Origin: Candidatus Parcubacteria bacterium
Lineage (GTDB): Bacteria > Patescibacteriota > Minisyncoccia > Minisyncoccales > JAGMDC01
Length of the DNA stretch: 64,000 nucleotides
Reading direction: 5' to 3'
NCBI GenBank assembly: GCA_023128895.1
Contig: JAGMDC010000011.1
Coordinates: 31,820 to 95,819, forward strand
How positions within the stretch are numbered: the stretch's first letter is position 1; the number at the start of each line of letters is the position of its first letter. Both the position numbers and the translations under genes were made by a program. Positions 21,538-40,395 of the stretch are shown one piece after another. The notes below the pieces were generated by a model that was given only the letters and a program-made list of their open reading frames with translations, ran no database searches and was not told the DNA's origin.

Positions 21538-22597
21538 AAATATAATAAACGCTTCTGCCTTTTCCAGCTTTTTTAATCACCTTACTTTTAATTAAATCCT
21601 GCAATAACTTATAGGCTGTCTTGTTGCTTACTTTTAATAAATCCCTTATTTGTCTATTGGTTATTTTTCCTTGTTTCTGCAAAAATTCTACCACCTTAAT
21701 TTGCTTATAGTCCAACGCCACTTGCTCGGCTTTGCGGTCTTTTTTCCTGCCCTTTGTTAACATTATTATTTTGTCTTTTACTGCTTTAGCGCTTACTGCC
21801 ACGCCCTCGCAGAAATACTCAATCCACGCTGTTAAATCTAAAATTTTGGGGTCAACGGTTTTCAATGCTTCGTAATAGCGCGGTCTGTCAGAATTATAAA
21901 AATCATCTAATGCAAAAAATCTTTTTGTGTCAAATCCCTGTCTTAACAAAATTAAACTTGCTAATGCTCTGGCGGTTCTGCCATTGCCATCTACAAATGG
22001 GTGTATTCTTACAAATTCGTAGTGCGTAATCCCTGCTTCTAATACAGTGTCTACTTCTTTTGCCTCTTTGCTGTTTAGCCAAACTATAAATTTTTTCATT
22101 TCTGCAGCCACTTCTTTTGCTGGCGGCGGCATAAAAGTAATGCGTCTGGTGAATTGCCCTACTCGTTCGGCTACCACTACTCTCCCTCGCTTCTTCTCGT
22201 CTACTGGTGTGCGGTAATGTCCGCTATTTTTCGGATCGCCTAATACTCCTTTAGTGATAATCTTGTGTAGTTTTAAAATATCCTTTTGAGCAATTTCTTT
22301 TTCTTTCGCTAGGGTATCTAAATGTTTCAGGGCTTCAAAATAATTCAGCACCTCTTTTTTGTCTTTTGCGGCGGCTGTTATTTCTCGCCCTATCATCAAA
22401 TCGCTCACTTCTCCAAGCGATAATTTGTTGCCCTCAATACTTGTTGAGGCGTGAGCGCTTTTGATTAAAGCCTGACGCCTTAAATCAATTTCCCATTTTG
22501 GTACAAGCGGCGCGTTTAAGATAATAGTCCGAGCTTCGGCTATCTCTGACAAAAAACGAATTGTTTTATTTGTAATTGTAAAATTTGGTTTAAACAT
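21530..22597 (-). CDS. Fic family protein with a C-terminal winged-helix domain
   Basis: Fic motif HPFVDGNGRTARAL. The ORF opens at 22639, but MFKPNFTIT (ATG at 22597) matches the paralogue's N-terminus. The C-terminal wHTH is KITNRQIRDLLKVSNKTAYKLLQDL. Confidence 0.9.
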   Translation of the reverse strand: MFKPNFTITNKTIRFLSEIAEARTIILNAPLVPKWEIDLRRQALIKSAHASTSIEGNKLSLGEVSDLMIGREITAAAKDKKEVLNYFEALKHLDTLAKEKEIAQKDILKLHKIITKGVLGDPKNSGHYRTPVDEKKRGRVVVAERVGQFTRRITFMPPPAKEVAAEMKKFIVWLNSKEAKEVDTVLEAGITHYEFVRIHPFVDGNGRTARALASLILLRQGFDTKRFFALDDFYNSDRPRYYEALKTVDPKILDLTAWIEYFCEGVAVSAKAVKDKIIMLTKGRKKDRKAEQVALDYKQIKVVEFLQKQGKITNRQIRDLLKVSNKTAYKLLQDLIKSKVIKKAGKGRSVYYILR

Positions 22598-22674
22598 AAA
22601 TATAATTAGTGAATCTTGGATTGATAAATCATTATTCATTCTACCAAAAAATCGCCTTCAATAAAAGACGAATA

Positions 22675-22714: not shown

Positions 22715-24970
22715 TTATTCATCTGGTGGCGGTTCAACTGGCGCTGGTGCGGGCACCTCAACTGGTTCTGGAGTAATAACTGGTTCGGGTTCAATAACTG
22801 GTTCGGCTCCCTCCTCTGTTTCTGAAGGAACTTGCGTAGGCAAGGGTTCAGGCTCGCCCGCCTGAATGCCCGAAAGGCTTTGCGTAGGTTCAATTGTCGG
22901 AGGTTCAACCTCCGATTGTTCTAACTCGGACTCAATTTTCGGAAGTCCGACTTCCGAAAATTCTGGTTCGGGTTCATCTATAGACAATCCTTCGACAGGC
23001 GCTTCAGCGTCTATTGGAACTTCCTCTGCGTTATCGTTATTGCCATCTCCAATCTCGTCAACAGCGCTCTCTGTATCCACGCTGCCTGTTGCGACAAAAG
23101 TATTGTTATTAATAATTAATGTGTCTAAAACTTCCTCATCTCCGCTGTCAACCTCATCATCATCATTTGTCGGAGGTTCAACCTCCGATTGTTCAGGCGC
23201 TTCATCGCTGGTCTCGTTCACAGGTGCTTCGGCGATAGATTCATCGCCAATGTCATCGCCCGCCCCGCCGTTGCCATCAAACTCAACAACAGCGTCCTCT
23301 ACACCAGGCGCGCTTATTCCGACAAAAGTATTGTTATTAATAATTAATGTGTCTGGCACTTCATTATCGTTAACGATTTCCTCAAAAGTTTCTTCGGGAG
23401 AAGTTTCTTCATCGTTCATTCCTTCAACAAGTATTTCTTCATCAGGTATTTCTTCAACGAGTATTTCTTCAACGAGTATTTCTTCAACGAGTATTTCTTC
23501 AACGAGTATTTCTTCAGACGATTCTATCGTCTCAAAAAGCAACATTTCTAATACTTCGGATTCAGTTAATAAAGGAGGACAAAAATCATTATCACTTTTA
23601 TCCCATGTCTGAACCATAAAATTCTCAGGCCCTTCTGCTGATATTTTTATTTTAATATCAGCGCCCACAAATCGGTGGTCGTAAGGAATTGTCCACTCGT
23701 ATTCTCCATCATTATAAGTATCATCAACAATTTTATAAAAACAATTATTACCGTGCTTATTGCAGAACCAGATATCTATTTTCAAATTTTCGTCAGAACC
23801 ATTATAATTGAAAGCTTCCCAACTTATAGGATAAATTCCAAACCAAAGATGAGCCAAATGAGGAGGAACAATGAACCACTGCTCTCCTCCATTAGGATAT
23901 AAAACAGTAACTTCGGGCAAACCAAGATATTCCCAATCAGAAACTTTGTCAGTGTCAAAACCTGTCGGCACCCTGCCCAGCACATTGCCTTTTGCCGCGC
24001 CGAGCACTCCAGGGTTCCATACATTTGAATTCCAATTTTGCCAACCATTGTTAGAATATCCCCAATTCATCTGGTCAATAATATTTCCGTGACTATCCTT
24101 CAAGATAAGCATATCAGCAACATTATCCAGCCAGCCGTTTGCTGGCGCTGTTCCTAAATTTATAGTTTCAACAAAATCAGGCACATCCCAATATTCAGTC
24201 CAAGTAGTATTGTCATGGGAAAGCAAAGCATATCCAAGGGTAGGAACATTTACTTGCTTGTCAATAACTTTACATTGGCTATTATTGCAAATTTCCCATT
24301 TCTCAATATTTATATCTTCGTCTGTGGGATTATAAAGTTCTATCCATTCATTTTTCTGCTCTGTGCCATGCTCTGAATCAACATTATAATACACTTTATT
24401 TATTACTAAATAGGGCTCAAATTGCGTGCTAATTATTGTATTTTCAATTTCTTCATAGTCGCTGAAACCAGCACAATCGCCAAGTTGAACGCCATCAAAA
24501 ATAAACTTAAAATTACAAATTTTGTTTTCAAATTCTGGATTATCATCTGGCAAACTCGCGATAAACTCCCAGTTCTCTGTCTCAAAAAATTTCCCTGCTT
24601 CAAAAATAAAATCTGTTAAATTCCCGATATATTCAGATTCTCCGTTGTCTAAATTAGCGTCTAATCGCAAAGCGTTGCAAAAATCCGTGTCACCGGAAAA
24701 CTCATCCGCGTAAACCGTATATTGAAAACCCAAACTGCCGTTGTTAATAACGCTAATAGCCCGTTTCGCGGGTTGCGTCAAGGATACTAATGGAAGAAAA
24801 TTTGCTAAAGAAGAAAGAGAGAAATCCAATGTGCTGATTTCTATCACATTGCTTCCAGAATTTTCAATATCGCGAAAATGCGCCAACTCTTCGTTCACAG
24901 CCAAAACCCCAGGTATATTCAAACCCAGAATCATTAACAACGCAATTATTTTGGTGATATATTTAAACAT
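22715..24970 (-). CDS. secreted protein: TasA/SipW-type N-terminus + lamin-tail domain + Ig-like domain + acidic low-complexity tail
   Basis: 751 aa. The signal region is followed by LAHFRDIENSGSNVIEISTLDF. The LTD motif is [37 protein letters not shown]. It has a PNGGEQW Ig-like module and EEILV, D/E-rich and PEP-rich tails. It is a paralogue of 36787-38790. Confidence 0.75.
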   Translation of the reverse strand: MFKYITKIIALLMILGLNIPGVLAVNEELAHFRDIENSGSNVIEISTLDFSLSSLANFLPLVSLTQPAKRAISVINNGSLGFQYTVYADEFSGDTDFCNALRLDANLDNGESEYIGNLTDFIFEAGKFFETENWEFIASLPDDNPEFENKICNFKFIFDGVQLGDCAGFSDYEEIENTIISTQFEPYLVINKVYYNVDSEHGTEQKNEWIELYNPTDEDINIEKWEICNNSQCKVIDKQVNVPTLGYALLSHDNTTWTEYWDVPDFVETINLGTAPANGWLDNVADMLILKDSHGNIIDQMNWGYSNNGWQNWNSNVWNPGVLGAAKGNVLGRVPTGFDTDKVSDWEYLGLPEVTVLYPNGGEQWFIVPPHLAHLWFGIYPISWEAFNYNGSDENLKIDIWFCNKHGNNCFYKIVDDTYNDGEYEWTIPYDHRFVGADIKIKISAEGPENFMVQTWDKSDNDFCPPLLTESEVLEMLLFETIESSEEILVEEILVEEILVEEILVEEIPDEEILVEGMNDEETSPEETFEEIVNDNEVPDTLIINNNTFVGISAPGVEDAVVEFDGNGGAGDDIGDESIAEAPVNETSDEAPEQSEVEPPTNDDDEVDSGDEEVLDTLIINNNTFVATGSVDTESAVDEIGDGNNDNAEEVPIDAEAPVEGLSIDEPEPEFSEVGLPKIESELEQSEVEPPTIEPTQSLSGIQAGEPEPLPTQVPSETEEGAEPVIEPEPVITPEPVEVPAPAPVEPPPDE
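23431..23520 (-). repeat. 15-bp tandem repeat (6 units) encoding (EEILV)n
   Basis: gtatttcttcaacga repeated head-to-tail, in frame inside the LTD protein. Confidence 0.9.
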
Positions 24971-25052: not shown

Positions 25053-26231
25053 TTAGATATCGGTATCGTCGTATGTAATCAAATTCATCTCAAACAAATA
25101 CTCTGAAGGATGCCAATCTGCCATACCAGGCTCAGTGTAATCGCTAGACAAAACTAACCAAATCTTAGCGCCAACTGGATAATTAGCGTCAGCAGAATCT
25201 GGTAAATCCATCCCTAAGTTAACAATCTGACCGGGATCATTTATACTGCCAATACCATCTGTAGTATGAGTGCCAATCAATTTACCCGGATGGTTTCCTG
25301 ACCATGGGTCAGCATAATAAATCAAATCATAACTTGTGGTTGGATTAAGCCCTGAAGCTGTAAAATCATAATCAAAAGTCGAACCTGAAGTATTGTAAGT
25401 CAAAGTTCCAGTAGCGCCGTTAGGTTCCCAAGTATCACCATCTTTCGCTTTTAGAGTAAGCAAACCGCTTCCTTCGCTTGTTGGAGCTGGAGCGCTAATT
25501 TGTCTTGCTTCTAATTCAATGTCAAATGTCATTTTATCGCCTTGCGCCCAGTTAGTGATTGTTTCAACTCCGGCGTCATCCCAAGCCATTAAATGGTAAC
25601 TTTGGCTAACTGCCAGAGGTTCGTCCACTTCTAATTCATTATCTAATTTAATCCAAATGCCATTAACATTGTCGATTCTTACCTGATTGGTTTCCGGAAT
25701 GATAACTATCCATTTGCCAGTAGTTAAATCCGGCGCGCTAGTGGCAGGATTAGCAGAATCAAGAACAGGACAATCGGAAGTATTTACTACACCATAACAA
25801 AAATACATGTCGTAAACTACATAAGCAGAAAGATTGTCTCGCTCTATGTAACCACCTACAACACAATTACCGCTTGCGTCAAATGTTCCGCCACCTTCTG
25901 TATATTCTGGTTCGGAAGAAGCTACACCACAAAAACTACTATCTCCGCCATCAGTCGCTACATTCATAATTCTTTTCCAAACATTAACTGGATTTGTGCC
26001 CACATTTTTGATGGTAAAATTCATGTAATTCGTCTGGCAAGGTTTGTCAAGCAACATTGGATAAGTTGTGTTCCATGGATTTTGACCAGCAACAGAAATA
26101 TCAATTGTTCCAATTGCCAATGTGTTTCCTATGCTTTTTTCAGTATCACTAAGAAAAGAAATAGTAACGCCAGTGGCAATTACGCCGACAACGGTAATAA
26201 GTGATAAACTAACTAATATTGTTTTGTTCAT
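25053..26231 (-). CDS. TasA/CalY (camelysin)-like secreted protein, paralogue C
   Basis: 392 aa. N-terminus MNKTILVSLSLITVVGVIATGVTISFLSDTEKSIGNTLAIGTIDISV, the SipW-cognate type. The proximal 5' region is identical to that of 26411-27280. Confidence 0.75.
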   Translation of the reverse strand: MNKTILVSLSLITVVGVIATGVTISFLSDTEKSIGNTLAIGTIDISVAGQNPWNTTYPMLLDKPCQTNYMNFTIKNVGTNPVNVWKRIMNVATDGGDSSFCGVASSEPEYTEGGGTFDASGNCVVGGYIERDNLSAYVVYDMYFCYGVVNTSDCPVLDSANPATSAPDLTTGKWIVIIPETNQVRIDNVNGIWIKLDNELEVDEPLAVSQSYHLMAWDDAGVETITNWAQGDKMTFDIELEARQISAPAPTSEGSGLLTLKAKDGDTWEPNGATGTLTYNTSGSTFDYDFTASGLNPTTSYDLIYYADPWSGNHPGKLIGTHTTDGIGSINDPGQIVNLGMDLPDSADANYPVGAKIWLVLSSDYTEPGMADWHPSEYLFEMNLITYDDTDI

Positions 26232-26410: not shown

Positions 26411-27280
26411 CTATATCCCACTAAACGGATCAGTCGGGTCATTATGCGTTGCCTGAACAACCTCAAAAATTGAATCACTAACATATGAGTCGCTCTGAAT
26501 AATATTGCCTGCGCTTGAACCATCACAGGTTAAATCTCCTGTGGCAACATTTGGCATAGTTCCTACGCACCAAGCAACGCCAATGTAATAAGTCTTATTT
26601 TCTCCGAATGGAATGTATATGCCAGTTGTTGGATCTTTGAGTTCTACCCAATCTCCCGCTGAATCATTGCCAGTGCCATAAACTAAGGTGCCAAGCTCCA
26701 CACCATTTAAAATATTATCTCCTTCTTCTAGATCATCTAGTTGTCCATATCCCCACTGGCTGCCCATATCAAACCAAATCGCAAAATCCATATTCGCGCC
26801 TAACTCGCCAGACACATCACTTCCTGGGTTGCCACAAGTTGTACCTGTACAAGTTTGTGTTGCAGGGTTCCATGTTCCTCCCTCAACAACACATTCTGGA
26901 ACATTACAACCATTGTCATAATTTTCTATATTATCTATTTTAAACCGCACATAAGCGTCATCGCCGGTTACATGCATACTAATAGTCGCTTCACCAAAAT
27001 CGCCTGACTTAAGACCTATAAAATTAAAGAATTTCTCGTCTATTAAATCTCTAGCGTCCCACTTGCAAGCGCAAGCTATACCTGTATCATCCCATGTGCC
27101 TCCAGTGCAATCCATACCATTGAAATGGCAATCGCTGTCTATCTTAAGATCTAAAATCCCCATAGCGAAAGTGCCGCTTTCACTCTTTTCAAAATCGCTC
27201 TGAAACGCTATAGTACCGCCAACGGCAATTACGCCAACAGCGGCAATAATCGATAAACTAATTAGTATTGTTTTGTTCAT
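26411..27280 (-). CDS. TasA/CalY (camelysin)-like secreted protein, paralogue B
   Basis: 289 aa. MNKTILISLSIIAAVGVIAVGGTIAFQSDFEKSESGTFAMGILDLKI. The mature part is Cys-rich. Confidence 0.75.
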   Translation of the reverse strand: MNKTILISLSIIAAVGVIAVGGTIAFQSDFEKSESGTFAMGILDLKIDSDCHFNGMDCTGGTWDDTGIACACKWDARDLIDEKFFNFIGLKSGDFGEATISMHVTGDDAYVRFKIDNIENYDNGCNVPECVVEGGTWNPATQTCTGTTCGNPGSDVSGELGANMDFAIWFDMGSQWGYGQLDDLEEGDNILNGVELGTLVYGTGNDSAGDWVELKDPTTGIYIPFGENKTYYIGVAWCVGTMPNVATGDLTCDGSSAGNIIQSDSYVSDSIFEVVQATHNDPTDPFSGI

Positions 27281-27699: not shown

Positions 27700-28539
27700 T
27701 TACTTATCTTTTAACTTTTTTTGTTCTTGAACCAATTTAAAATTATACTTGCTTATCGCTCGCTTGCCCGTCTTAGCTTCAATTTGTTTGCGAGCGTTGC
27801 CGGCAATACCGCCGCCATCTCGCGCTACTCGCCGATTTTCTGGAAGATTTTTCGGTTCGCGCTTATGCGATATTTCAGTGGTTGCGGTTTCGGCAAGCAT
27901 ATTAAGCACTAATTCCAAATTTGTCATATTGTCACGCAGACTTTCTTTTTTAAGTCTTTTGAAATTTTTATACTCGCGCGTGCCCATACCCGCCCAAGCT
28001 AAAGTAATGTCGTCAGTCAAAATAGCAAATTCGTCGCCTTGCTTAACACCACGCTTTTCCCATTCATCGGTTAATGCCTTTCTTATTTCAATGCTTTTCA
28101 AACGTTGATTTATCCAATTGTCGCTATACCCCTTCTTGCGATAGGTGTTTAATGCGCGGTTAATAGCCAACTCTGGATCATGCATTTCTTCTATGCGTTC
28201 ATAGCCCACGCGAGCAAGCCAAAGCTTAAATGGCTCGGCATTAGGCGATGGTATAGATTGAATTAAACGAAGCATAATTTCAGTGTCAGCAACATCTGTA
28301 AGCCGCATTTTTCCGTCTGCGGCTAACATTTTGAAACCGTGACATTTTGTCACGGTTTCATTCCCTCCCTCTTTTTTTAATCTTTCTTTAAGTTTTCTCC
28401 AATATTCCTGAGGGCTAACACTTTCAGAAAGTGCTGCCACCACATCAACCACGGAAAAATACCACTTTTCTTGTTTTTCATTCCAGTGGCGTCTTATTTT
28501 TTTACCCTTAAAAATTGCGATGCGTTTTTCTTTTTTCAT
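27700..28539 (-). CDS. BRO-N domain / DinD-like protein
   Basis: 279 aa. N-terminal FKGKKIRRHWNEKQEKWYFSVVDVVAAL, typical of Bro-N/DNA-damage-inducible protein D family proteins. It forms its own transcription unit between two terminators. Confidence 0.6.
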   Translation of the reverse strand: MKKEKRIAIFKGKKIRRHWNEKQEKWYFSVVDVVAALSESVSPQEYWRKLKERLKKEGGNETVTKCHGFKMLAADGKMRLTDVADTEIMLRLIQSIPSPNAEPFKLWLARVGYERIEEMHDPELAINRALNTYRKKGYSDNWINQRLKSIEIRKALTDEWEKRGVKQGDEFAILTDDITLAWAGMGTREYKNFKRLKKESLRDNMTNLELVLNMLAETATTEISHKREPKNLPENRRVARDGGGIAGNARKQIEAKTGKRAISKYNFKLVQEQKKLKDK

Positions 28540-28679: not shown

Positions 28680-31600
28680 TTATTCTCTCCTGCCAATCAA
28701 AGCTTTAGTCAAGCGCAGAATCATTAATCCTAATATAATGCCAAACAGGAATGTAAGCGCTAATTTCCAGCCATGTAAATTGCTGAAAAATGTTCCGATT
28801 CCGGCTAAAAATTTTGCTTCGCCAGCCATAGCATCGGCGGAGGCGGGATCGTCTTTTGATTGGTCATGTATAACTGATGACTGATCATTTTCGTCCGCGG
28901 GTAATAATGATAACTGACCATTGTCTTCAATCTTCGCAAGTTCGACTTCCGAAAATTCTGATTGATCATTATTCGCATAAGCGAAAGATGACATATCTGC
29001 TTTCGGTGAAATTTTTGCCACTTCATGTCTTATTGTTGCTACCTTGCTGTTTATTTCACTTATTTTTTCCGCTATTTCTTCTAAGGAAATTTCCGCTTCT
29101 TCCTGCTCTTCCTGCTCCTGCTCTTGTTCTTGCTCCTGTTCTTGTTCTTCTTGCTCTTCATCTTGAGCAGAGGTTTCAGAAACATCGTCATCCTCCAAAC
29201 TTGCTAAAGTTGTAAATGTGAATTCCTGACTGAAAATAGAAGGAGACGCACGAGAAATAGTCCTGTAATAATATGTTTGCTCAGGGCTTAATTCAGGGAT
29301 TACTACTGTATGAAAAGTAACTTTTGGATTAGTGTCTTGCTCAGGAGTCATATGCGCGTATCCATACATAGGCGGATTATTAGAATCAAAATTATGTATT
29401 TCGCCTTCAACTGAATAAATCACCTGGCTGCTGGCGAAAAAACTGGTTCGCCAGGTAATAGTCACGCTGTCTGCAACAATGTCTGTTGGTCTTACATCTA
29501 AAATTGAATGTGGAATTATTGCCACCCCGCCGCCACTAGGAGGAGTTGCGGCTGGCTCTGGGTCAGCAACAGGACAATTTGAATCATCGTGTTGACACTC
29601 ACCGTCAACGCAGGTATCTATTGTGCATTCAATATCGTCATCGCAAATTATAGGAGTGTATACACATTCTCCGTTAACGCAGGCGTCAGTTGTGCAAAGA
29701 TCTTCGTCATCGCAAACTATAGAAGTATATACACATTCTCCGTCAACGCAGGCGTCAGTTGTACAAGGGTCTCCGTCATCACAAACTATTGGCGTTCCCG
29801 CGCACTTGCCCCCTGAACAAATATCATTTTCTGTGCAATCAATGCCGTCATCGCATGGGTTAGTGTTGTCAATAGATTCACAAGTGTATGCTAAATTACA
29901 TATATTATTTGTGCAAGGATTACTATCGTCACAATCAGCGTCTTCATCACATTTGCAAGTAGAAGTATCGTGCTGGCAATTGCCATTAACGCAACTATCC
30001 TTTGTGCATTTAATGCCGTCATCACAATCCATTGGAGTCCCGGAGCAATCCCCGTCTAAACATACATCATCAATCGTGCAAGCGTCTTCATCGCTGCACA
30101 AAGTTCCATCTTGTTCGTTCCCTGTTATACCTGTATCAACCCATTGAAAATGTGTTGTGGTAGACTGACAATCTAAAATTATGTCGCAAAAGTAATCTAT
30201 AAATCCTTGTTCTTTCTGTTCTTTTTCTATACAAGAGCCACAATTTATCCATTTAGTATTTCCAGTATCAACCCATTCATCTTCTGAACAATTTGCGTCA
30301 TTTCGTGTGTTTACGCATTGGTCAATTTCTTCATCACAGGTATCATCTGTGCAATTAATTCCATCACCACAATCTGGCGGAGTGCCTGGTTGGCACTCAT
30401 ATGTCTCTAAATTAAATGTTTCTATCCCATTACACCATAATCCATCATCACAAGGATAATAATTACCAAAATGTTTATCAATAATATTTTCCAAACCAGC
30501 AGTTATAGTTTCTGTATATGTACTTGGTTCAAGTGTCACTGGGTCAAAAGGATAAGTTTGCTGCCAGCCGTTCTGCAAAGTTTCGCTAATAATATAATCG
30601 CCTGCTACTAAACCGGCAAATTTATAACAACCTTGCTTATCATCAATTAATTGGCTAGTTAATTGGCTTAGGTTGACTAATTGTCCTTCTGTTGTTGTGC
30701 CAGTTAAAGTAATTTCCCAGCCAGGCAAGCCAGTCAAAGGTTCTTCATCTGTAATATCGCCGTCAGCGTCAGCGTCCAAGTATTTACACCCGGAAATTGA
30801 ACCATACTGGCAAATTTCGCTGGCAATTGCCTCATAGATAGCGGCTAAATCCGAACCAGTAGGCGCGTAGTGATATTGAGCGTTAGTAGTACTAGCAATG
30901 CTTTGAAGCATTGGCTCATCTATTTTATTTTTATCACCTAATCCAATTGTAAAAATTTTATAACCCTTTGCCACGGCTTCTGCTGTTGCTATTTCAACAG
31001 CTCCAGTATTTAAATCCTTGCCGTCAGTTAAGAGAATTGCCGCTTTAATTGCCTGTGGATTGCCATTCGTCGTTAATTCAGCATTAGCCGCGTTAATCGC
31101 GCCAGCGATATCAGTCCCAGTCCCTGCCTGTGGAGTTAAGGTATCAATAGCTACATTAGTTGCGGAATGATTATTTGACAAAATCGGGTCCAAACTTGCT
31201 GTATCATTAAAAGAAACCAAAGAAGATTGGTCATCAGTTCCTAAATTATCAACAAACGCCTTTGCCGCTGTTTTTGCTAACTCAATTTTGTTTGAAACAG
31301 GAGGCGTATATTCAGGAGGAAAATTGCAGGGTGCAGCGCTGCCCTGGGTCTGTTCCAAACACCATTCTTCTGTAACATCTTCTTCGGTATAAAGAACGCA
31401 AAAGGGCACTTCATATTTTTTCCATTCACATTTGCTTAGAACTGCGCCTCCGTCCATACTACCAGTAGTATCCATTACTAAAACCACATCAAGGGCAGAA
31501 GGACAAAGTGAAAGTTCATCTGCTTGAATAAAAGGGATTAAAAACGCTGTGGCGCAAATAATCAAAGCAACAGCGCTAATCCCAGCAGCAACCTTGATTA

Positions 31601-32024
31601 TTTTTTCCTTACTTTGAATTACAAAATGTCTGACTTTTGTCATTCTGAGGGCGACTGCCTGAAGAATTTCTTGCGAACGCAAAGAATTTTGGAATAGACC
31701 CTTCACTTCGTTCAGGGTGACAATCCGAGAATTGTCAATACGCCAAAAATTCTTCTTTCCTTCTATTTTTCTTTTTGGTTTATCTTGCCAGGAAAAAGAA
31801 AGTTGGTTTTCTTTTCCAATCTTTTCTAATGAAATACTCTCTGGGTCTGCCTGCAGAACTTGCAAAGCAAGGCGGAATAATCTTAATCTCTGCTCAACTC
31901 GCTCTTTAGTATTATAAAAAACAGAAACAAGAGCAGAATATTTCTGTTTAATCTTTGAGGTTTGGATAACAAAAGAAATTCCTACTTCCCCATTTTCTGT
32001 TTTTATTCTCTTAATCTCCAACAT
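28680..32024 (-). CDS. 1114-aa double-anchored surface protein: vWA + CnaB/SdrD-B-like + ~10 Cys-rich CTxDxC repeats + Fn3-like module + acidic spacer + C-terminal TM
   Basis: The domain order is as follows. An N-terminal ~140-aa cytoplasmic segment and a TM helix (AAGISAVALIICATAFLIPFI) come first. Next is a vWA domain with MIDAS-like VLVMDTTGSMDG. A CnaB-like module follows (GCKYLDADADGDITDEE..GCYKFAGLVAGDYIISE). Then come repeats such as CDDGIDCTENDICSGGKC and CDDGDPCTTDACVDGEC. The protein ends with VTITWRTSFFASSQVIYS..YYYRTIS, an (EQ)n spacer and the C-terminal TM LALTFLFGIILGLMIL. Confidence 0.8.
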   Translation of the reverse strand: MLEIKRIKTENGEVGISFVIQTSKIKQKYSALVSVFYNTKERVEQRLRLFRLALQVLQADPESISLEKIGKENQLSFSWQDKPKRKIEGKKNFWRIDNSRIVTLNEVKGLFQNSLRSQEILQAVALRMTKVRHFVIQSKEKIIKVAAGISAVALIICATAFLIPFIQADELSLCPSALDVVLVMDTTGSMDGGAVLSKCEWKKYEVPFCVLYTEEDVTEEWCLEQTQGSAAPCNFPPEYTPPVSNKIELAKTAAKAFVDNLGTDDQSSLVSFNDTASLDPILSNNHSATNVAIDTLTPQAGTGTDIAGAINAANAELTTNGNPQAIKAAILLTDGKDLNTGAVEIATAEAVAKGYKIFTIGLGDKNKIDEPMLQSIASTTNAQYHYAPTGSDLAAIYEAIASEICQYGSISGCKYLDADADGDITDEEPLTGLPGWEITLTGTTTEGQLVNLSQLTSQLIDDKQGCYKFAGLVAGDYIISETLQNGWQQTYPFDPVTLEPSTYTETITAGLENIIDKHFGNYYPCDDGLWCNGIETFNLETYECQPGTPPDCGDGINCTDDTCDEEIDQCVNTRNDANCSEDEWVDTGNTKWINCGSCIEKEQKEQGFIDYFCDIILDCQSTTTHFQWVDTGITGNEQDGTLCSDEDACTIDDVCLDGDCSGTPMDCDDGIKCTKDSCVNGNCQHDTSTCKCDEDADCDDSNPCTNNICNLAYTCESIDNTNPCDDGIDCTENDICSGGKCAGTPIVCDDGDPCTTDACVDGECVYTSIVCDDEDLCTTDACVNGECVYTPIICDDDIECTIDTCVDGECQHDDSNCPVADPEPAATPPSGGGVAIIPHSILDVRPTDIVADSVTITWRTSFFASSQVIYSVEGEIHNFDSNNPPMYGYAHMTPEQDTNPKVTFHTVVIPELSPEQTYYYRTISRASPSIFSQEFTFTTLASLEDDDVSETSAQDEEQEEQEQEQEQEQEQEEQEEAEISLEEIAEKISEINSKVATIRHEVAKISPKADMSSFAYANNDQSEFSEVELAKIEDNGQLSLLPADENDQSSVIHDQSKDDPASADAMAGEAKFLAGIGTFFSNLHGWKLALTFLFGIILGLMILRLTKALIGRRE

Positions 32025-32034: not shown

Positions 32035-33006
32035 TTAAAAGATAGTTTTAATTTTTTTTATTCCTATTTTCAAAAATTTGGGCTTTTTATAGAAAACAGT
32101 TAAAATGCCTGCTATGATTGCTAAAATTCCGCCAATAATAAACCATGCAAGGGTTAAATTTCCACCGCCAATAATAGCGATAGAGGCGAATAACTTACTC
32201 CAATCAAATCCAACCTGAAAGCGAAAATCGGTTTCCTTGATAACTTCGTTATTGAGCAAAACTTTAAGTTCCGCAAGATATCTGCCATTGTCCTTGCCAT
32301 CTGTAGGCCATTCAATTAAATTTTCAAAAACTTTTCTTTCAAACGGCCTTACTGGATTTTCATTTTCAGGATAGGGATAGATAACAGTACTTTGAACAAC
32401 TTTGCCAGTGTTGATTTGAGTAATCTTTAATTGGATATCCGGCTTAATTGAAACATTGCCTTGATTATTATAAATAACTTTAATTTTCAGGGGCTCATTT
32501 TTACCAACCCCATATTTTAAAGGAATGATAAAAGTATTAAAATCAAGAATCTCCTCATCGGTAACTATAATTGAAACTTCTCTGCCAATCCTTTGACCTA
32601 CAGTAATGCTCATTTCGCCTGTGTCTTTATTTTTTGTAGGCGTAGTAAAAATATACACTTTGCCGGAATATTCACCATTAGGCGCATCGCTTGGAACAGT
32701 AAATTTGACTATTGCTTTAACATAAGATTCAGCAGGAACTTGAATTTCAGTAATGGAATTTTCCAAATTTATATCATCAATCTTATAAAAACTTACCCAA
32801 TCAGCAATTTCGCCTTCTGTTTTTAATCCATAAAAAATTTCCTCATTTTCTGAATTAAATAAATCAAGAATTTTTGTTACTTGGCTGTCTCTTAAAATGT
32901 TTTCAATAATAATTGGCTTTGTCACTTGTCCAATTGCTAAAGCACTCAAAGGCAAAGCAAATGATAACACAAAAATTATTAGAATTAAATTATTTATTTT
33001 TCTCAT
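32035..33006 (-). CDS. surface protein with signal peptide, Ig-like beta-rich ectodomain and C-terminal TM anchor
   Basis: The ORF opens at GTG 33024. The ATG at 33006 gives MRKINNLILIIFVLSFALPLSALA. The C-terminal helix is WFIIGGILAIIAGILTVF followed by a basic tail. Confidence 0.6.
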   Translation of the reverse strand: MRKINNLILIIFVLSFALPLSALAIGQVTKPIIIENILRDSQVTKILDLFNSENEEIFYGLKTEGEIADWVSFYKIDDINLENSITEIQVPAESYVKAIVKFTVPSDAPNGEYSGKVYIFTTPTKNKDTGEMSITVGQRIGREVSIIVTDEEILDFNTFIIPLKYGVGKNEPLKIKVIYNNQGNVSIKPDIQLKITQINTGKVVQSTVIYPYPENENPVRPFERKVFENLIEWPTDGKDNGRYLAELKVLLNNEVIKETDFRFQVGFDWSKLFASIAIIGGGNLTLAWFIIGGILAIIAGILTVFYKKPKFLKIGIKKIKTIF

Positions 33007-33014
33007 AATGCTTC

Positions 33015-33043
33015 TTATTAACACATTCCCAAAACCTTGTCAA
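33015..33043 (-). promoter_or_regulatory. island promoter block, copy 3 (near-leaderless)
   Basis: The minus strand reads GGGGTTGACAAGGTTTTGGGAATGTGTTAATAA. The -10 ends about 8 nt before the ATG at 33006. Confidence 0.45.
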
Positions 33044-33087
33044 CCCCTTACTGCTTCGTATGTCTGAAGTAATAAGGTGGGGGCCTG

Positions 33088-33127
33088 CCCCCACACCTAA
33101 TCTGGTAATCCAGGTTAGGTGTGGGGG
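33088..33127. repeat. 40-nt GC-rich hairpin, copy 1
   Basis: cccccacacctaatctgg-taat-ccaggttaggtgtggggg. It lies downstream of the 435-aa gene. A near-identical copy is at 40043-40082. Confidence 0.75.
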
Positions 33128-33171
33128 CGCCACAAGGAACGCCCTAAAGAACTCATTTCAGCGATTAACCA

Positions 33172-34479
33172 CTAATCACTACACAAACTTGTATTAAAAA
33201 CTGCAAAATCAGCGTCTAACCATATCGTACCTGTGTAAGCACTCTGATCAATACCATGCTCCCATTTGTGCACCAAAATAACGAAATCCATTTTTTCAGT
33301 TTCTGAAAGGTCAAGAATTTCGTCTAAGATAGCGTAGTGTGAACCTATTGGGTCACCGAGATCGTCCTTATACTTGAAAGGGTCATAAAGACCGTGCCAA
33401 TCACCTGCAAGGGTGCCTACTCTGGCATCATACTGAACATTCCAGACACTGCTGCTCTGACCAAAATCCATATCGTCTTGGGCAACCTTGACGTTTAATC
33501 TGGTGTTGCCAAGATTTCTTACGGTTGGTTTACCGTCCCCAGCATGGCAAGCACTGTCATACCAATAACAGCCAGCACCTGAACATGCGGTTTCGTCCGC
33601 AAAGCCAGGACAACTATCTGGTGTGTAACCAAAATTTCTATCACCTGGAACTTGATTGCGGATATCCTTTGTTACATTTTTGTAAGTAATGTAATCAAAA
33701 TCTACTTCAAAACCGGTAAATCCCACATATTCAAAGTGATTGTCCAAAATCTCACCGGGACCATACGCATCATGAGCAGTAATCTCAACTAAGTAATCAC
33801 CAGCTGGGTGTTCCCAACTTATGGATTTGTCATCGCAGTAGACATATGCCAGTTCCTGTACTAACTGTCCGGTTGAAGGATCACAAACATCCTGGTAAAA
33901 ATCTGCGAGGTCAGTAAACATACCATTTACAGTCTCGATTACCGGTAAATCGTAGTTGCCATTTTTAATGCTGTCGCAGACCAACTGAATACCCTCATCC
34001 TTGCTTAACTGAATAAGAGTGTTTTCCTCAATGAAAGCGCCGCAGCCTCCGCTGGGATTATCTATCTCGTTAGGATCCATTGATACGTGCATAGGACTTA
34101 ATTCTGGATAATAGATGTCAGCGTAAACACCGTCAATGTCAGCAACACCGTTAAGGTCGCTGGCAATAGCGCAGACAGTATAGTTCATATCAGCATCCCA
34201 AGTACCGGGAGCATTAAACTGAGATCCAGGAGCATCGCTATCATCCTGTCCTTCTCCTCCTGATAATGCTGAACAAGCGTTATAAGTAATGCCATCTGCA
34301 TCAAAGCAGGGTCCTTTCATTTCCCATTTAGCTTTAACAAAAGGACGGTCACCACCGGCTGTGCCAATAGTTAAACCTGTCCCAACAGTAGGGTCAATAG
34401 TGCCAGCCGTACTCAAGGCTGGACCTACGGTCATGACAGCCATTGCTGCCATTAAAGTAATTGCAATTATTTTTTTCAT
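33172..34479 (-). CDS. secreted hypothetical protein (standard Sec signal)
   Basis: 435 aa. MKKIIAITLMAAMAVMTVGPALSTAG. The mature part is Asp/Gly-rich with several Cys. It has its own promoter block and a long structured leader. Confidence 0.6.
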   Translation of the reverse strand: MKKIIAITLMAAMAVMTVGPALSTAGTIDPTVGTGLTIGTAGGDRPFVKAKWEMKGPCFDADGITYNACSALSGGEGQDDSDAPGSQFNAPGTWDADMNYTVCAIASDLNGVADIDGVYADIYYPELSPMHVSMDPNEIDNPSGGCGAFIEENTLIQLSKDEGIQLVCDSIKNGNYDLPVIETVNGMFTDLADFYQDVCDPSTGQLVQELAYVYCDDKSISWEHPAGDYLVEITAHDAYGPGEILDNHFEYVGFTGFEVDFDYITYKNVTKDIRNQVPGDRNFGYTPDSCPGFADETACSGAGCYWYDSACHAGDGKPTVRNLGNTRLNVKVAQDDMDFGQSSSVWNVQYDARVGTLAGDWHGLYDPFKYKDDLGDPIGSHYAILDEILDLSETEKMDFVILVHKWEHGIDQSAYTGTIWLDADFAVFNTSLCSD

Positions 34480-34820: not shown

Positions 34821-34848
34821 AGTTTATACAATCATAAAACCTTGTCAA
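34821..34848 (-). promoter_or_regulatory. island promoter block, copy 2
   Basis: The minus strand reads GGACTTGACAAGGTTTTATGATTGTATAAACT (TTGACA, 16 nt, TAAACT). The -35 overlaps the SipW stop codon. Confidence 0.5.
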
Positions 34849-35363
34849 GTCCTATCGCCGATTTCCTTTCCTTTCCTAACTTCTTTAACAATCTTATAAA
34901 TTTCATCGCCAATAATCGCTGCTGCCGGGATGCCGATTATCAATAAAAATCCCAATGGTTTGCGGGCAAAATCTACAGCAAGGCCCAGATACGGAACATC
35001 AAACAATACCTTTCCAACAATATCTTTTTCCGTAATTTCCCGCGCGTCAGGCGCGTTGTTAGTATCCCCTTTTGTGATATAAACAGGTTTGCCTTCAACC
35101 ACTTTCATCTCGTGAATTCTATGCGTTATGGGTGGGACATCCTTGTTTGCTGACTCAAAAGTAATTATATCCCCTATTCTATATTGGCTAACCGGCTTTA
35201 CAACAACAATGCTTCCTATCTTGATTTCCGGGTCCATTGACCCGGACAGCACGGTCAAAACCTTAAAATTTCCTGAAATCGGCAGAACAGACACAATCAG
35301 CAAGAGCGCAATCAAACCCAGAAACCCGACGACAACATAGTAAATTATTTTCAAAATCTTCAT
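34845..35363 (-). CDS. sipW: signal peptidase I, archaeal/ER (SipW) type
   Basis: 172 aa. N-terminal TM helix, LSGSMDPEIKIGS (catalytic Ser box), ITHRIHE (His box), KGDTNNAPD, and a C-terminal TM helix. Its start overlaps the upstream ORF by 4 nt. Confidence 0.85.
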   Translation of the reverse strand: MKILKIIYYVVVGFLGLIALLLIVSVLPISGNFKVLTVLSGSMDPEIKIGSIVVVKPVSQYRIGDIITFESANKDVPPITHRIHEMKVVEGKPVYITKGDTNNAPDAREITEKDIVGKVLFDVPYLGLAVDFARKPLGFLLIIGIPAAAIIGDEIYKIVKEVRKGKEIGDRT

Positions 35364-36769
35364 ACTGTTTCTTTTTTAAATTTTCTTTTGGTAATCTCTC
35401 TGTCAATCCAATAGGCCAAAAGAGTTGCTAAGGCCAAAACAATAAAAATCCAGAACGGAACGCAAAAACATTCAAGTAAGAACATTAAAATTGCCAAAAT
35501 TATTGGAATTAAACAACAAATAAGCCAAATAATTCCTTGCTTTCGGAAATGTTTTTTCAATAATACATTATATTCTTTTTTGCTTTTTTGCAAAAAGGTT
35601 ATTCCCTCTATTAAAGGATAAATGGCAAAGAGCAAAATTAACCACCAAGGCAGACAAGAGGGAAACTTTAGCGCGGCTAATAAACTAGCTAAGAAAGGAG
35701 TTGGAGAGGGTTCTTCAACTATTTCTTCCTCAACTATTTCATCTTTCATTGGTTCTTCTTCCTTTTTTTCAGGTTCTTTTGGTTCTTCAGGCGCTGCCTC
35801 TACCGGCGCTATGAATATTTTTTCATCAATTTTTTCCTCCTTTTCCTTCTCCTCTTCCTTCTTTTCTTTTGCTTCTTCCTTTTTCTCTTCCTCTTCTTCT
35901 TCCTCTCCTATTACACAAAGGGTAGTAAACTCATATTCCGGGCTTATATTCAATGAATATGGGCTAATTCGGTAAGAAACAACACGATAATAATAATCAG
36001 TGCAAGGCTCAATGTCAGGAAGAATAATCGTATGGAAAGTTTTTACTGCGGAATCCTCTGGCACAGGATAAATATGAGCATAGCCGTAATAAGGCGAGTC
36101 ATCAGGATTAAAATCACGGCTTTCGTGTTCAGCTGAATAAATCACCTGGCTTGTGGCGAAAAGAGTGGTCTGCCAGGTAATAGTTGCTGTATTTTCAGTG
36201 ATATCTATTGATTTTACATTAAAAATTTTAAGAGTAATCGGAACTCCGCCGCCGGTGCCTGTCTGAACGCCTAATGTTGTGACTGTGGTATCTTCATCTT
36301 CTTCTTCTTCTTCTGATGAAATATCTCCGATGACCAAATCAAATTGAAGGGTTTCTCCCTGATATTCATTACCTGCCAAAAGAGCAAAGGTAATATCAAG
36401 GTCGTATTGGGTTTGCGCGCCATTAGCAAGAACGGAAAGGTCAATACTGGTTTGAGAAAATAAATGGGAAAGAGTATTGCTGTAAAGAGTGCTGGCTCCT
36501 TCTTTAATTTCTAAATTAAGAACATCGCCTAAATGGGCAGGGTCAGTAACATTATCCGTGTAAATAGATATTGTTCGAGGTTCCGCGCCATTATTTTCAA
36601 CTTTTATCCAGCCGTCAGAACTGTCTCCGGGTAAAAAATTTGTTTCTGTAAATAATGGGTCTTGCTCAAACTGCATTTCTAATCCATTCTGCGCGCAAAC
36701 TGAAAACCCTGTGAAGCTAAAGCCAAGGATAAGTGATAAAAATATTAAATTGGCGCTGTGTTTGGTCAT
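35360..36769 (-). CDS. membrane-anchored protein: TasA-like beta-sandwich segment + Fn3-like module + acidic spacer + multi-TM C-terminus
   Basis: 469 aa with a signal peptide. FLPGDSSDGWIKVENNGAEPRTISIY resembles the TasA-family PGD..N.G strand pair. ATITWQTTLFATSQVIYS..YYYRVVS is shared with the vWA protein. E/K-rich tracts follow, then about 4 C-terminal TM helices. Confidence 0.6.
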   Translation of the reverse strand: MTKHSANLIFLSLILGFSFTGFSVCAQNGLEMQFEQDPLFTETNFLPGDSSDGWIKVENNGAEPRTISIYTDNVTDPAHLGDVLNLEIKEGASTLYSNTLSHLFSQTSIDLSVLANGAQTQYDLDITFALLAGNEYQGETLQFDLVIGDISSEEEEEDEDTTVTTLGVQTGTGGGVPITLKIFNVKSIDITENTATITWQTTLFATSQVIYSAEHESRDFNPDDSPYYGYAHIYPVPEDSAVKTFHTIILPDIEPCTDYYYRVVSYRISPYSLNISPEYEFTTLCVIGEEEEEEEKKEEAKEKKEEEKEKEEKIDEKIFIAPVEAAPEEPKEPEKKEEEPMKDEIVEEEIVEEPSPTPFLASLLAALKFPSCLPWWLILLFAIYPLIEGITFLQKSKKEYNVLLKKHFRKQGIIWLICCLIPIILAILMFLLECFCVPFWIFIVLALATLLAYWIDREITKRKFKKETV

Positions 36770-36786
36770 TGAATTTAATATAAGGG

Positions 36787-38790
36787 TTATTCTGCTGGGG
36801 CGGGCGCTGGTTCGGGCGCTGGCACAGGTTCAAGCGCTGGCGCAGGTTCGGGCGCAGGTTCGGGCGCTGGCGCAGGTTCGGGCGCTGGTTCAGGCGCTGG
36901 CGCTGGTTCAGGCGCTGGCGCTGGTTCAGGCGCAGGTTCAGGAGCTGGTTCTGGCGCTGGCGCTGGAGCAGGTTCAGGCGCTGGAGCTGGTTCGGGCGCT
37001 GGTTCAGGCGCTGGCGCTGGTTCAGGCGCAGGTTCAGAGGCTGGTTCGGGCGCTGGCGCTGGTTCAGGTGCTGGAGCTGGTTCGGGCGCTGGCGCTGGTT
37101 CGGGCGCTGGCGCTGGTTCGGGCGCTGGCGCTGGTTCAGGCGCTGGCGCAGGTTCTGGCGCTGGCGCTGGTTCGGACATTGGTTCTGGTTGTCCTACCCC
37201 ATTGTCCACAGGATTTTCAACTGGCAAGAGTTCTGGCGGAGCTGGCGGTTCAACTGGCTCAACTGGTTCAACTGGCTCAATAGGTTCTGTCGGTTCTACT
37301 GGCTCAACTGGCTCAACTGGCTCAATCGGTTCTGTCGGTTCTACTGGTGCAACCGCGCCAACTGATCCAAGGGGTTCGTCTGGTTCTGGCGGTTCAAAAA
37401 CTCGAGGACCTGTAGCAGAATCTTGAACCATAAAGTTCTCCGGACCGTAAGCAATTACTTTTACCCAAACATAACCATAATAGCAATAAGAGCCCCGTAT
37501 ATAAAGACGATAACTTCCTGAATTTGCTATATGATCAGCCACAAGATAAGTTCTGTCTCCGCTGCTAATTCTTCCATTTCTATCATTATCAGTAATATAA
37601 ACAATATCAATCAATAACTCATTATCATCGCCATTAGGATTTGTTGCTGACCAGTTAATTGTATAAGTCCGTCCACAATACCAATAGCCGCTGTGATAAT
37701 AAGAAACAGATACAATAGGCGGCGCTAAATCTTGAAAATCAGACGGTTGGTCAGTATCATACCCGTCCGGGACCCTTCCGAGCATATGTCCTTCGTCAAC
37801 ATCAGGACAGCCCATTGGAGTCCAAACTCCTAAATTATAATTCAACCAATTAATATCAGGAATTCCCCAATTCATTTGGTCAATAATATTGTTATGATTA
37901 TCTCTTAAAACGAGCATATCAGCGGTATTATCCAAGCCATTGCCAATAGTCCCGTCAGATAAAACAATTTTCACAACATCCGCGGGAATCTCCCAATAAT
38001 TCCAAGTGCTTGCGTTTCCTGTAATCAACGCGTAACCATAAGATGGAATAATAATACTTGAAGCAGATAACACATCTAACCCGGCATCGTCTTCAATGCT
38101 CCAGTTCATAATATCTATTGACTCATCGCTGTCATTGTAAAGTTCTATCCATTCATTTGCCGGCTCTGTCCCATGGTCTGAATCAACATCGTAATAAACC
38201 TTGTTAATAACAAGTTTTGGCAATTCAGGAGCACAAATTCCTGAAGTGATAGTATTTTCAATTTCCTCTTCGTCGTGAAATCCGCCTCCTTCTAAATCCA
38301 CTTGCCAGCCGGAATACAAAAACTTAAAAGAGCAAACTGATTCTTCCGGAAATCCGTCAATTAAAGTAGCGGTAAAATGCCATTGATGAGGAACAATGCC
38401 ATTAGGTTCTGCAAATAGAAATTCCTCACAATTAAAACCAATTAAATTGCCTTGGCATTCTGATACTCCTCCATCTAAATTCGCCTCTAAAATAATGTAA
38501 CTACAGAGGTCTCCAGAAAAATCAGTTGTCTCAATTTTATAACGAAAAGGATTGCCATTATTCAACAGGTCAATAGTTCTCTCAGCCGTTAAACAAGTCA
38601 TTTCCGGCATGAAATCCTGGGGCGAGGATAAATAGAAATCCAAGGCCCCGGCAATCAGGGAACTGTCAGTAGAACTTTCAGGGTCGTCAAAATAAGCAAA
38701 AACCTGTTTTGTTTCTAAAGCAAAAGCCGCCATCCAAATTACTGCTAAGACAGCGCAAAAAATACCTATTTTGAACGCTCTAAAATTCAT
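36787..38790 (-). CDS. secreted protein: TasA/SipW-type N-terminus + lamin-tail domain + Ig-like domain + (PAPE)n tail
   Basis: 667 aa. [27 protein letters not shown]. The LTD motif is [37 protein letters not shown]. The C-terminus carries ~140 aa of PEPAPA and PVEPTEPIE repeats. Confidence 0.75.
36790..37345 (-). repeat. GC-rich hexa/dodecanucleotide tandem repeats encoding PAPE and PVEP tracts
   Basis: ggcgctggttcaggc-type units, in frame within the 667-aa ORF. This is the most G+C-rich stretch in the window. Confidence 0.9.
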
Positions 38791-39947: not shown

Positions 39948-40014
39948 GTAATACGAAAATTTTTTGTTGAAAATTTTGTTTTCATATGTCAAAAATTATC
40001 TGTCTGTATTGTGA

Positions 40015-40362: not shown

Positions 40363-40395
40363 TCACTTGAAAATAAAAAGAACATAATTTTCAAT

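Follow-up and report, generated by a model that had tools for sequence, protein, structure and literature searches.

A modular, adhesin-type vWA surface protein of a Parcubacteria bacterium and the conserved three-gene cassette that encodes it

The gene described here lies on a 64,000-nucleotide stretch of the genome of an ultra-small Candidatus Parcubacteria bacterium (contig JAGMDC010000011.1 of assembly GCA_023128895.1; this whole stretch is called the window below, and unprefixed coordinates refer to it), where it occupies positions 28680..32024 on the minus strand and encodes a protein of 1114 amino acids (aa) with a vWA domain. We find that this gene is the third member of a conserved and undescribed cassette of three surface protein genes, denoted 435-329-vWA after the lengths of the first two products. 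The analysis supports the view of the vWA protein as modular, exported, membrane-associated and of adhesin type, with the domains that an earlier, sequence-only reading of this DNA had named. With a confidence a little above even, we favour the interpretation that it is a Sec-exported modular surface adhesin of Parcubacteria, held at its C-terminus, displaying its vWA domain at the tip and acting with its cassette partners. This type of vWA protein is familiar and introduces no new principle; the conserved unannotated cassette is the more interesting result.

The open reading frame (ORF) is real and the gene is intact. It runs through 1114 codons without interruption from an ATG at 32024 to a stop at 28680-28682, as the sequence-only reading had it, and to that reading, which gave no strand, the minus strand can now be added. 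An independent assembly from another sample (L118) carries the gene at 100% identity across 3345 nt, and in a third assembly (L119) it is identical as far as the contig end. The breaks called in the ORF in scaffold L117 are owed to 100-N scaffolding gaps, which rules out an interruption there; the sequence-only reading had held that its case would fall if the frame proved broken in other assemblies, and it did not. The 1114-aa product might still be an artefact of annotation, the real start being M128 or the gene being fused or decaying, and indeed M128 with the basic n-region and h-region behind it makes a textbook signal peptide. We hold this to be extremely improbable. The ATG at 32024 sits 10 nt past the upstream stop, as in related loci, the gene callers give 1114 aa in L118, the independent assemblies agree, and the first 95 residues upstream of M128 form a module (aa 1-95; 31740..32024, minus strand) that is N-terminal in 12-13 of the 118 vWA homologues collected, with the motifs "M(L/F)KI..KKENGE.GISL" and "...ANPE.ISL...". 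Since this module is conserved at the protein level, the N-terminus is not a mis-called start, and M128 was rejected as the start on that ground. From homology and an AlphaFold2 (AF2) model (predicted local distance difference test, pLDDT, 55-75), the module is predicted to be a cytoplasmic domain with the order beta-beta-alpha-alpha-beta-beta. A HMMER search over 1.84 billion representative proteins found it solely at the N-termini of such vWA proteins, and it has no Pfam match at E <= 10. The N-terminal segment of about 140 aa that the sequence-only reading had placed ahead of a transmembrane (TM) helix is thereby upheld.

The order 435-aa gene, 329-aa gene, vWA gene on one strand is found in the window and in loci L001, L003, L005, L017, L082-84, L087, L090, L103, L104, L106, L109 and L113-115, and every locus with a vWA homologue that was examined (L001, L003, L005, L017, L113-L115) has homologues of the 435-aa and 329-aa genes directly upstream. 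An independent test of the cassette was provided by a metagenome scan seeded with the 329-aa family alone, which returned 31 loci; a giant vWA gene follows immediately downstream in 16 of the approximately 21 loci with enough downstream DNA, and a 435-aa homologue stands upstream in nearly all. Cassette proteins also occur in bins labelled Gammaproteobacteria (P0270, L008), which are probably mis-binned contigs of the Candidate Phyla Radiation (CPR).

The first gene (33172..34479, minus strand) encodes a secreted 435-aa protein of tandem Ig-like beta-sandwiches (AF2 pLDDT 87), whose end has neither a TM segment nor a C-terminal sorting signal and which has no anchor. Its family has more than 160 members, all "hypothetical", and no Pfam match was obtained for the protein at E <= 10. 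The best Foldseek matches are the C-terminal domains of streptococcal AgI/II, integrin alpha leg domains, PrgB and SdrG/SdrD, and weak ones to the major pilins BcpA and that of Clostridium perfringens follow at ranks 48 and 50. Past the signal peptide, at aa 25-45, the family has an N-terminal extension of the form V-x-T-x-L-T-x-G in which T34 and L36 are nearly invariant; it is of low pLDDT and resembles a donor strand, and a role in polymerisation is conceivable. In L005 and L104 a 435-family domain is fused to an N-terminal domain of the type found in a 469-aa protein of the window, described below. The second gene (32035..33024, minus strand) encodes a protein of 329 aa (323 aa from the gene callers' ATG) in which a signal peptide precedes a beta-rich ectodomain and a TM segment closes the C-terminus; its 82 homologues are all unnamed. 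WxLIP_PGBD was weakly matched by 10 of 43 family members (best 1e-3), amid other Ig-like families, and WxLIP_HBD by one of the 43 at E 3.9e-6. Neither the 329-aa nor the 435-aa family had a match in profile searches of the PDB, and profile-profile comparisons of the 435-aa with the 329-aa family, and of the 435-aa and 469-aa families with the TasA-like proteins, gave nothing significant, the best reaching 22% probability over signal peptides only. CscA/DufA proteins of the Csc/WxL complexes of lactobacilli and enterococci combine DUF916 and DUF3324 with a C-terminal TM segment. The 329-aa protein is similar in its signal peptide, beta-sandwich ectodomain, C-terminal TM segment and length of about 320 aa, and in being encoded beside secreted partner proteins and a large surface protein; it differs in that its WxLIP Pfam matches are weak, no WxL-domain proteins are present, and the host belongs to the CPR.

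The region between the first and second genes (33025..33171, minus strand) consists of GC-rich hairpins followed by a TTGACA box. The minimum free energy of the hairpins has a z-score of -4.45, values from -3.6 to -7.3 were obtained in four related loci, and the hairpin regions of relatives lie at L001:8856-9005, L003:8818-8967, L113:8947-9052 and L017:8621-8770. There is a terminator-like site at 33094-33077, three loci share an intergenic start 'UUUAGGGCGUUCCUUGUG(A/G)CGCCCC' behind the 435-aa gene, and the TTGACA box just upstream of the 329-aa gene is conserved across loci. Judged by its sequence, the region looks like a terminator or attenuator together with an internal promoter. As the second gene ends 10 nt ahead of the vWA start (the corresponding gap is 2-76 nt across loci), hairpins, box and short gap together suggest that the 435-aa gene is transcribed separately from a 329-vWA unit. 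Promoter-like hexamers TTGACA-16 nt-TAAACT occur in identical form at 34848-34821, upstream of the 435-aa gene, and at 27569-27542 on the minus strand, ahead of a TasA-like gene (26411-27280); common regulation is possible, with the caveat that the scan overall was not enriched over shuffles.

The vWA domain (aa 174-405; 30810..31505, minus strand) is identified by the Pfam VWA model (E 3.6e-14, 53.8 bits against a cut-off of 23.8), by a model of pLDDT >90 and by Foldseek and phmmer matches to vWA structures. Its metal-ion-dependent adhesion site (MIDAS) is made up of D185-T-T187-G-S189 (31458-31472), T304 and D334, and the DTTGS that the sequence-only reading had called MIDAS-like is therefore part of a complete site: D185, S189, T304 and D334 are invariant across 63 aligned homologues, while position 187, Thr in this protein, is occupied by Ser in 90% of them or more. 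Metal binding is predicted from these residues. The same alignment shows two further invariant residues, C174 and C405, one at each end of the domain. Right behind the MIDAS loop the family has a specific four-Cys insertion of 48 aa (aa 196-243; 31296..31439, minus strand), in which 'SxCxW ... TExWC' is kept in the consensus and for which AF2 gives a beta-hairpin plus helix at pLDDT about 90. The homologues, more than 100 in number, come nearly all from Patescibacteria and bear generic names throughout; distant ones occur in DPANN (Aenigmatarchaeota) and Methanosarcinales bins (P0101, P0118). A Foldseek search with the domain gave 262 matches at E <= 1e-3, the best 50 of which all have the vWA fold and are headed by the generic vWA proteins 4fx5, ANTXR2 and BatB, along with the inter-alpha-inhibitor heavy chain, vWF A3 and integrin I domains. 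By sequence (phmmer), the solved relatives are only BatB, mussel PTMP1 and two membrane-spanning vWA proteins. Closest are BatA/BatB (PDB 3ibs, 4jdu, 4rck; NCBIfam PRK13685; E 7e-7 to 2e-4), which likewise have an N-terminal hydrophobic segment directly ahead of the vWA domain; the Bat proteins, however, are short and have neither a stalk nor a C-terminal anchor, and the likeness is confined to the vWA domain. The genes of Bat proteins are accompanied by those for MoxR and DUF58 proteins, and no AAA/MoxR or DUF58 Pfam match was found among the window ORFs scanned.

Behind the vWA domain comes a beta-sandwich resembling the SdrD-B/CnaB type (aa 408-520; 30465..30803, minus strand). The sequence-only reading had proposed a module of this kind, and in its favour are a confident AF2 beta-sandwich and precomputed PF17210 matches in most homologues, though the Pfam scores of the protein itself stay below the cut-offs (SdrD_B, E 7.5e-4, 20.1 bits against 29.7; SpaA, E 3.3e-3, 18 bits against 23.1). 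The sandwich has a calcium-type DxDxDG loop at D417-E428. It is followed by a Cys-rich stalk (aa 524-817; 29574..30455, minus strand) of nine four-Cys modules, six full and three degenerate, set in two blocks that a 62-aa non-repeat insert (aa 579-640) divides. The modules are 23-24 aa long (69 nt) with the core C-D-D-x3-C-T-x-D-x-C-x2-G-x-C; the sequence-only reading had the core right but counted about ten repeats of about 35 aa. At the end of the array a 69-nt unit is repeated in tandem, in 2.2 copies that share 89% nucleotide identity. The 24-aa Pfam repeat Dicty_CTDC is similar in unit length and Cys/Asp pattern, at a score below its cut-off (19.1 bits against 27). In close relatives the place of the stalk is taken by DUF4215 repeats, LTD domains or extra beta-sandwiches, and the stalk is thus a swappable cassette. 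Next is the fn3-like module that the sequence-only reading had anticipated (aa 837-943; 29196..29516, minus strand), which matches Pur_ac_phosph_N above the cut-off (E 4.6e-9, 37.2 bits against 30), is modelled at pLDDT >90 and shares 44% identity with its fn3 counterpart in the 469-aa protein (35360-36769). An acidic low-complexity spacer (aa 944-1086; 28767..29195, minus strand), delimited from sequence and the AF2 model, completes the ectodomain; it holds the (EQ)n run expected from that reading (aa 955-977), a helix at aa 981-1005, disordered sequence and a FLAGIG motif at aa 1072-1077.

A Kyte-Doolittle scan of the vWA protein shows exactly two hydrophobic segments, aa 145-168 (TM1; 31521..31592, minus strand) and aa 1087-1106 (TM2; 28683..28766, minus strand, tail included). 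The 15 aa leading into TM1 contain five Lys/Arg residues, the 15 aa beyond it contain none, and the tail behind TM2, RLTKALIGRRE, has four. This distribution fits an N-in/C-in arrangement, and a precursor with the N-terminus inside, the ectodomain outside and the C-terminus inside is well supported. By hydropathy and charge, TM2 and the basic cytoplasmic tail constitute a C-terminal membrane anchor. The sequence-only reading, which was correct as to both helices and the basic tail, had concluded that the protein is embedded in the membrane at both ends and forms an outer loop of about 900 aa; this holds for the precursor but probably not for the mature form, the double anchor probably being transient. 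TM1 ends in a predicted signal-peptidase site, IQA168/DE, and we consider it on balance probable, from sequence comparison, that it is cut there, which would leave a C-terminally anchored protein with the vWA domain at its tip. Removal of TM1 is made probable by the signal peptides of relatives, the kept c-region, the closeness of the vWA domain to TM1 and the C-terminal anchoring throughout the family. At the position homologous to TM1, about 100 of the 118 homologues carry a short signal peptide of the ordinary kind. In the 63 aligned homologues the c-region reads (small)-x-(A/S) and, after a stretch of 3-6 polar or acidic residues, [LM]-C, as in IQA/DELSLC, TKA/NNGQGLC, VYA/NGGGLC, VLA/NELC and ALA/EEMC (slash marking the predicted cut); in the 16 homologues with a long N-terminal extension, the residue at -1 is always small and the one at -3 is nearly always an allowed one. 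Only 10 aa separate TM1 from the start of the vWA fold, against a spacer of about 140 aa ahead of TM2, and nearly all full-length homologues have a C-terminal anchor of some type.

Alternatively, TM1 may be permanent and the protein a true double-anchored loop, its vWA domain lying on the membrane surface and its N-terminal domain coupling the ectodomain to the cell interior, for example in inside-out regulation or in docking to a secretion or pilus machine. The two hydrophobic segments with their matching positive-inside charge are in keeping with such a loop, as are the conservation of the N-terminal domain and its restriction to a subfamily, the continuous helix that AF2 predicts over aa 117-162, and the origin of the nearest solved vWA domains in N-terminally membrane-anchored proteins. 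We nevertheless regard it as unlikely, if deserving of serious attention, for an AxA-type site after TM1 is retained in every homologue that has the N-terminal domain, and three of these (P0001, P0014 and P0026) end in sortase-type LPKAG/LPSAG signals. Moreover, no spacer separates TM1 from the vWA domain where TM2 has its approximately 140 aa, and a rod-like stalk suits a design with the tip outward better than a loop.

Across the homologues the C-terminal anchor takes the form of a single TM segment, of a multi-TM domain, or of a sorting signal with TM segment and basic tail, and LPxTG/LPxAG/LAxTG followed by a hydrophobic stretch and a basic tail is present in 21 of the 118. In both sorting-signal loci inspected, a sortase gene lies directly downstream of the vWA homologue (L115, 12803-13447; L116, 13747-14505); the vWA homologues next to sortase end in LAATG or LPATG, and L116 has three tandem vWA genes with a SipW-like gene ahead. 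These relatives, together with the combination of a vWA and a CnaB/SdrD-B-like domain and the weak fold similarity of the 435-aa partner to BcpA and the C. perfringens pilin, are what speaks for the vWA protein of the window as the tip adhesin of a sortase-assembled pilus of Gram-positive type. For this protein, such a reading is largely refuted and must be called very improbable. It has no LPxTG or LAxTG, ending instead in FLAGIG, a TM segment and a basic tail, the ORFs of the 64-kb window give no Sortase Pfam match, and the 435-aa protein lacks a sorting signal. A pre-TM motif common to the vWA, 329-aa and 469-aa proteins, [FL][LF]A[SAG][IL][GA], was considered as a shared sorting signal and rejected; being present in just 4 of the 118 vWA and 1 of 30 329-aa homologues, it is a trait of close relatives only. 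The tip adhesins RrgA, GBS104 and SpaC have a MIDAS vWA domain with insertions, borne on CnaB-type domains and displayed off the cell. The protein studied here resembles them in having a MIDAS vWA domain with a nearby insertion on a CnaB-type beta-sandwich that would be held away from the cell, whereas it differs in having no LPxTG, in the lack of a pilin sortase in the window and in a stalk of Cys-rich repeats plus fn3. Gram-positive pilus-tip adhesins were found neither among the best 50 of the 262 structural matches nor among the sequence matches. The parallel drawn by the sequence-only reading is therefore sound as regards modular, exported, adhesin-type domains and fails as regards close kinship; the analogy is functional, not familial. 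The protein is no member of the pilus-tip family, but it probably works in a similar manner, as a metal-dependent adhesive head on a stalk.

The cassette of the window lies within an island of SipW/TasA-like fibre genes. Directly upstream of it is a gene for a SipW-type (archaeal-type) signal peptidase I (34845..35363, minus strand; TIGR02228, 5.3e-34, 117 bits against 51.85), and TasA-like genes stand on both sides. The sequence-only reading had thought the association of vWA with SipW/TasA unusual, but it has a precedent in the sipW-bsaA-bsaB-bsaC operon of C. perfringens, in which BsaC (CPE0517) is a vWA protein of about 70 kDa that is released to the medium and depends for secretion on the type IV pilin PilA3 (PMC7395162, PMC11580942). 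As far as the published description of BsaC goes, both are exported vWA proteins encoded by SipW and TasA-like genes, BsaC being an accessory and not a fibre subunit; the present protein differs in its 1114 aa, C-terminal anchor, Cys-repeat stalk, cytoplasmic N-terminal domain and two other conserved partners. Conceivably, the vWA protein assists or anchors the TasA-like fibres of the island, much as BsaC or TapA do; its vWA domain would then bind the fibres or their subunits, tie them to the cell and improve matrix integrity, instead of attaching to a foreign surface. The place of its gene between SipW and TasA-like genes agrees with this, as does the finding that bsaC mutants of C. perfringens have fragile pellicles and less BsaA polymer (PMC7395162). 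As to the co-occurrence with SipW that the sequence-only reading had asked about, about 15 related loci were compared: five of them (the window, L017, L104, L113 and L116) have SipW at a distance of no more than 10 kb, and six have TasA-like genes within that distance. Co-location with SipW is enriched and not obligatory, a facultative association, and it is the two upstream genes, rather than SipW, that are tightly partnered with the vWA gene. In two thirds of the related loci (L003, L103, L115 and others) neither SipW nor a TasA-like gene occurs in the 10 kb around. The vWA protein has neither a TasA-like donor-strand domain nor a SipW-type signal, an NCBIfam scan of it giving no match to TIGR04088; as such it is unlikely to be a fibre tip, though it could still bind fibres. 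We judge the fibre-accessory role decidedly improbable. A scan of GTDB genomes with the vWA alignment was uninformative on BsaC-like arrangements, since the matches listed were mostly generic vWA proteins; among these no SipW was found nearby, except at L017, which truly belongs to the family.

Patescibacteria are already on record as having TasA homologues (PMC9245690), and in descriptions of TasA-superfamily loci a signal peptidase of their own is joined by genes for minor subunits, tip proteins and membrane anchors and, in some cases, by sortases (PMC12337348; bioRxiv 10.64898/2026.01.04.697558). The island as a whole fits the blueprint of the TapA, TafC/TafF (haloarchaeal Tafi) and AbpX loci, in which the signal peptidase goes with several TasA-like subunits, predicted adhesin and membrane-anchor genes and at times sortases (PMC9245690, PMC12337348, bioRxiv 10.64898/2026.01.04.697558), but the tip and anchor proteins described there enter the fibre by means of a pilin-like or jelly-roll domain, which the vWA protein lacks, and it has a membrane anchor of its own. 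An exopolysaccharide module recurs upstream of the cassette in L001, L113 and L114, which is a further point for a fibre-accessory role: glycosyltransferase family 2 (GT2) and polysaccharide deacetylase genes are found just upstream at L001:2052-7218, L113:185-4512 and L114:1199-3829, joined in L001 and L113 by a GHL10 glycoside hydrolase. This module is of exopolysaccharide type and suggests a neighbourhood of matrix or attachment genes. In several loci the neighbours of the cassette, or of the 435/329 pair, include type IV pilin genes and a PilC-like gene (L001:14632-17092, L110:8327-11213 and L107:1271-3340), and the window itself has a T2SSE/PilB-like ATPase gene (43786-44985) 12 kb away, which recalls the PilA3 dependence of BsaC secretion.

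We return to the adhesin interpretation favoured at the outset, under which the protein would work as follows. TM1 would serve as a signal peptide and be cut at IQA168/DE, freeing the vWA tip, while the conserved 95-aa domain would remain on the cytoplasmic side. Anchoring in the cytoplasmic membrane would fall to the helix and basic tail at the C-terminus, and the acidic, partly helical spacer of about 140 aa would be long enough for crossing the wall. Outward from the spacer, the fn3-like domain, the nine-module Cys stalk with its presumed disulfides and the calcium-type SdrD-B-like sandwich would carry the vWA domain at the distal end, where the MIDAS, by way of a divalent cation, may engage an acidic side chain on its ligand and the four-Cys insertion near it would probably shape specificity. 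The 329-aa and vWA genes would form a two-gene transcription unit, with the 435-aa protein transcribed separately, and the three proteins may act jointly as a surface adhesion complex, encoded here inside a SipW/TasA-like fibre island.

Several points weigh against this interpretation. We infer the cut after TM1 from motif conservation and the logic of the design only; an n-region of 144 aa is far beyond the normal range of signal peptides, the conserved N-terminal domain argues for a lasting role of TM1, and the closest solved vWA domains (BatB, 4rck, 4jdu) adjoin an N-terminal membrane anchor in their proteins. The fold of the Cys-repeat stalk is not captured by AF2, with pLDDT about 30. Both the ligand, which may be a host cell, the matrix or a fibre, and physical contact with the cassette partners are putative. 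Last, 5 of the approximately 21 loci of the 329-aa-seeded scan have the 435/329 pair and no vWA gene; in these the pair stands beside type IV pilin clusters, beside SipW plus LTD, or beside nothing of the kind. A bolder proposal, in which the cassette would be an undescribed attachment organelle of Parcubacteria, with a polymer of the 435-aa protein joined through its N-terminal extension, a CscA-like membrane base of the 329-aa protein, the vWA protein as MIDAS adhesin and integrin-like inside-out control of host attachment through the N-terminal domain, seems to us speculative and quite improbable.

The remaining genes of the island are all on the minus strand. Upstream of the SipW gene are those for the 469-aa fn3/multi-TM protein (35360-36769), an LTD protein (36787-38790), a TasA-like protein with a TIGR04088 signal (38942-39715; 38.7 bits against a cut-off of 19) and a Fic protein (41214-42059); downstream of the vWA gene are those for a Bro-N protein (27700-28539; E 4e-9), two TasA-like proteins (26411-27280 and 25053-26231), a second LTD protein (22715-24970) and a second Fic protein (21530-22639). 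The N-terminal beta domain of the 469-aa protein ends in a TasA-like 'GNxYQG..F' motif, and its C-terminus is a multi-TM, Cys-containing domain of the type that ends many vWA homologues (P0018, P0011, P0020). Both LTD proteins have SipW-type 'A(Y/H)F(D/R)D' signals and a TasA-like N-terminal region at their start, and end in long Pro/Glu/Ala or acidic repeats that produce a local G+C spike of 0.469 and cause the spurious antisense ORFs 36711-37283 and 22866-23612. Bro-N is a family typical of phages and mobile elements; the gene lies between the vWA and downstream TasA-like genes and is absent from that place in related loci. The two Fic paralogues, 39% identical and in the same orientation, flank the whole island. 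The one at 41214-42059 has no C-terminal helix-turn-helix (HTH), which seemingly exists separately in a 76-aa ORF (40817-41047), and about 1.1 kb beside this (39716-40816) holds no convincing ORF. The window at large has a G+C content of about 38% and is a segment of bacterial chromosome, with housekeeping genes for FtsZ, enolase, SerRS, GreA, PBP2/MreC, PGK and SecA/D/F and a class II aminoacyl-tRNA synthetase (tRNA-synt_2, D/K/N type); an Rfam scan of all of it gave no matches. Two adjacent secreted subtilases (48695-49936, 50145-51746) and a TraG/VirD4-like coupling protein with a zinc finger (53887-55506) are encoded downstream of the island and have no obvious connection to it.

Attachment in CPR/Patescibacteria is poorly understood beyond a few cultured Saccharibacteria, in which type IV pili are implicated. 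We found nothing specific in the literature on this vWA family or on the cassette in the CPR. The present work adds a widespread family of MIDAS-bearing surface proteins and a conserved cassette in which two unannotated families, of more than 160 and more than 80 members and without a Pfam match, accompany the vWA giant. That the cassette recurs beside genes for SipW/TasA-like fibres, exopolysaccharide, sortase or type IV pilins belongs to the same picture. The vWA family and its cassette are concrete candidate attachment factors of Parcubacteria, traceable in metaproteomes, and the cassette may help these bacteria to attach to hosts or surfaces.

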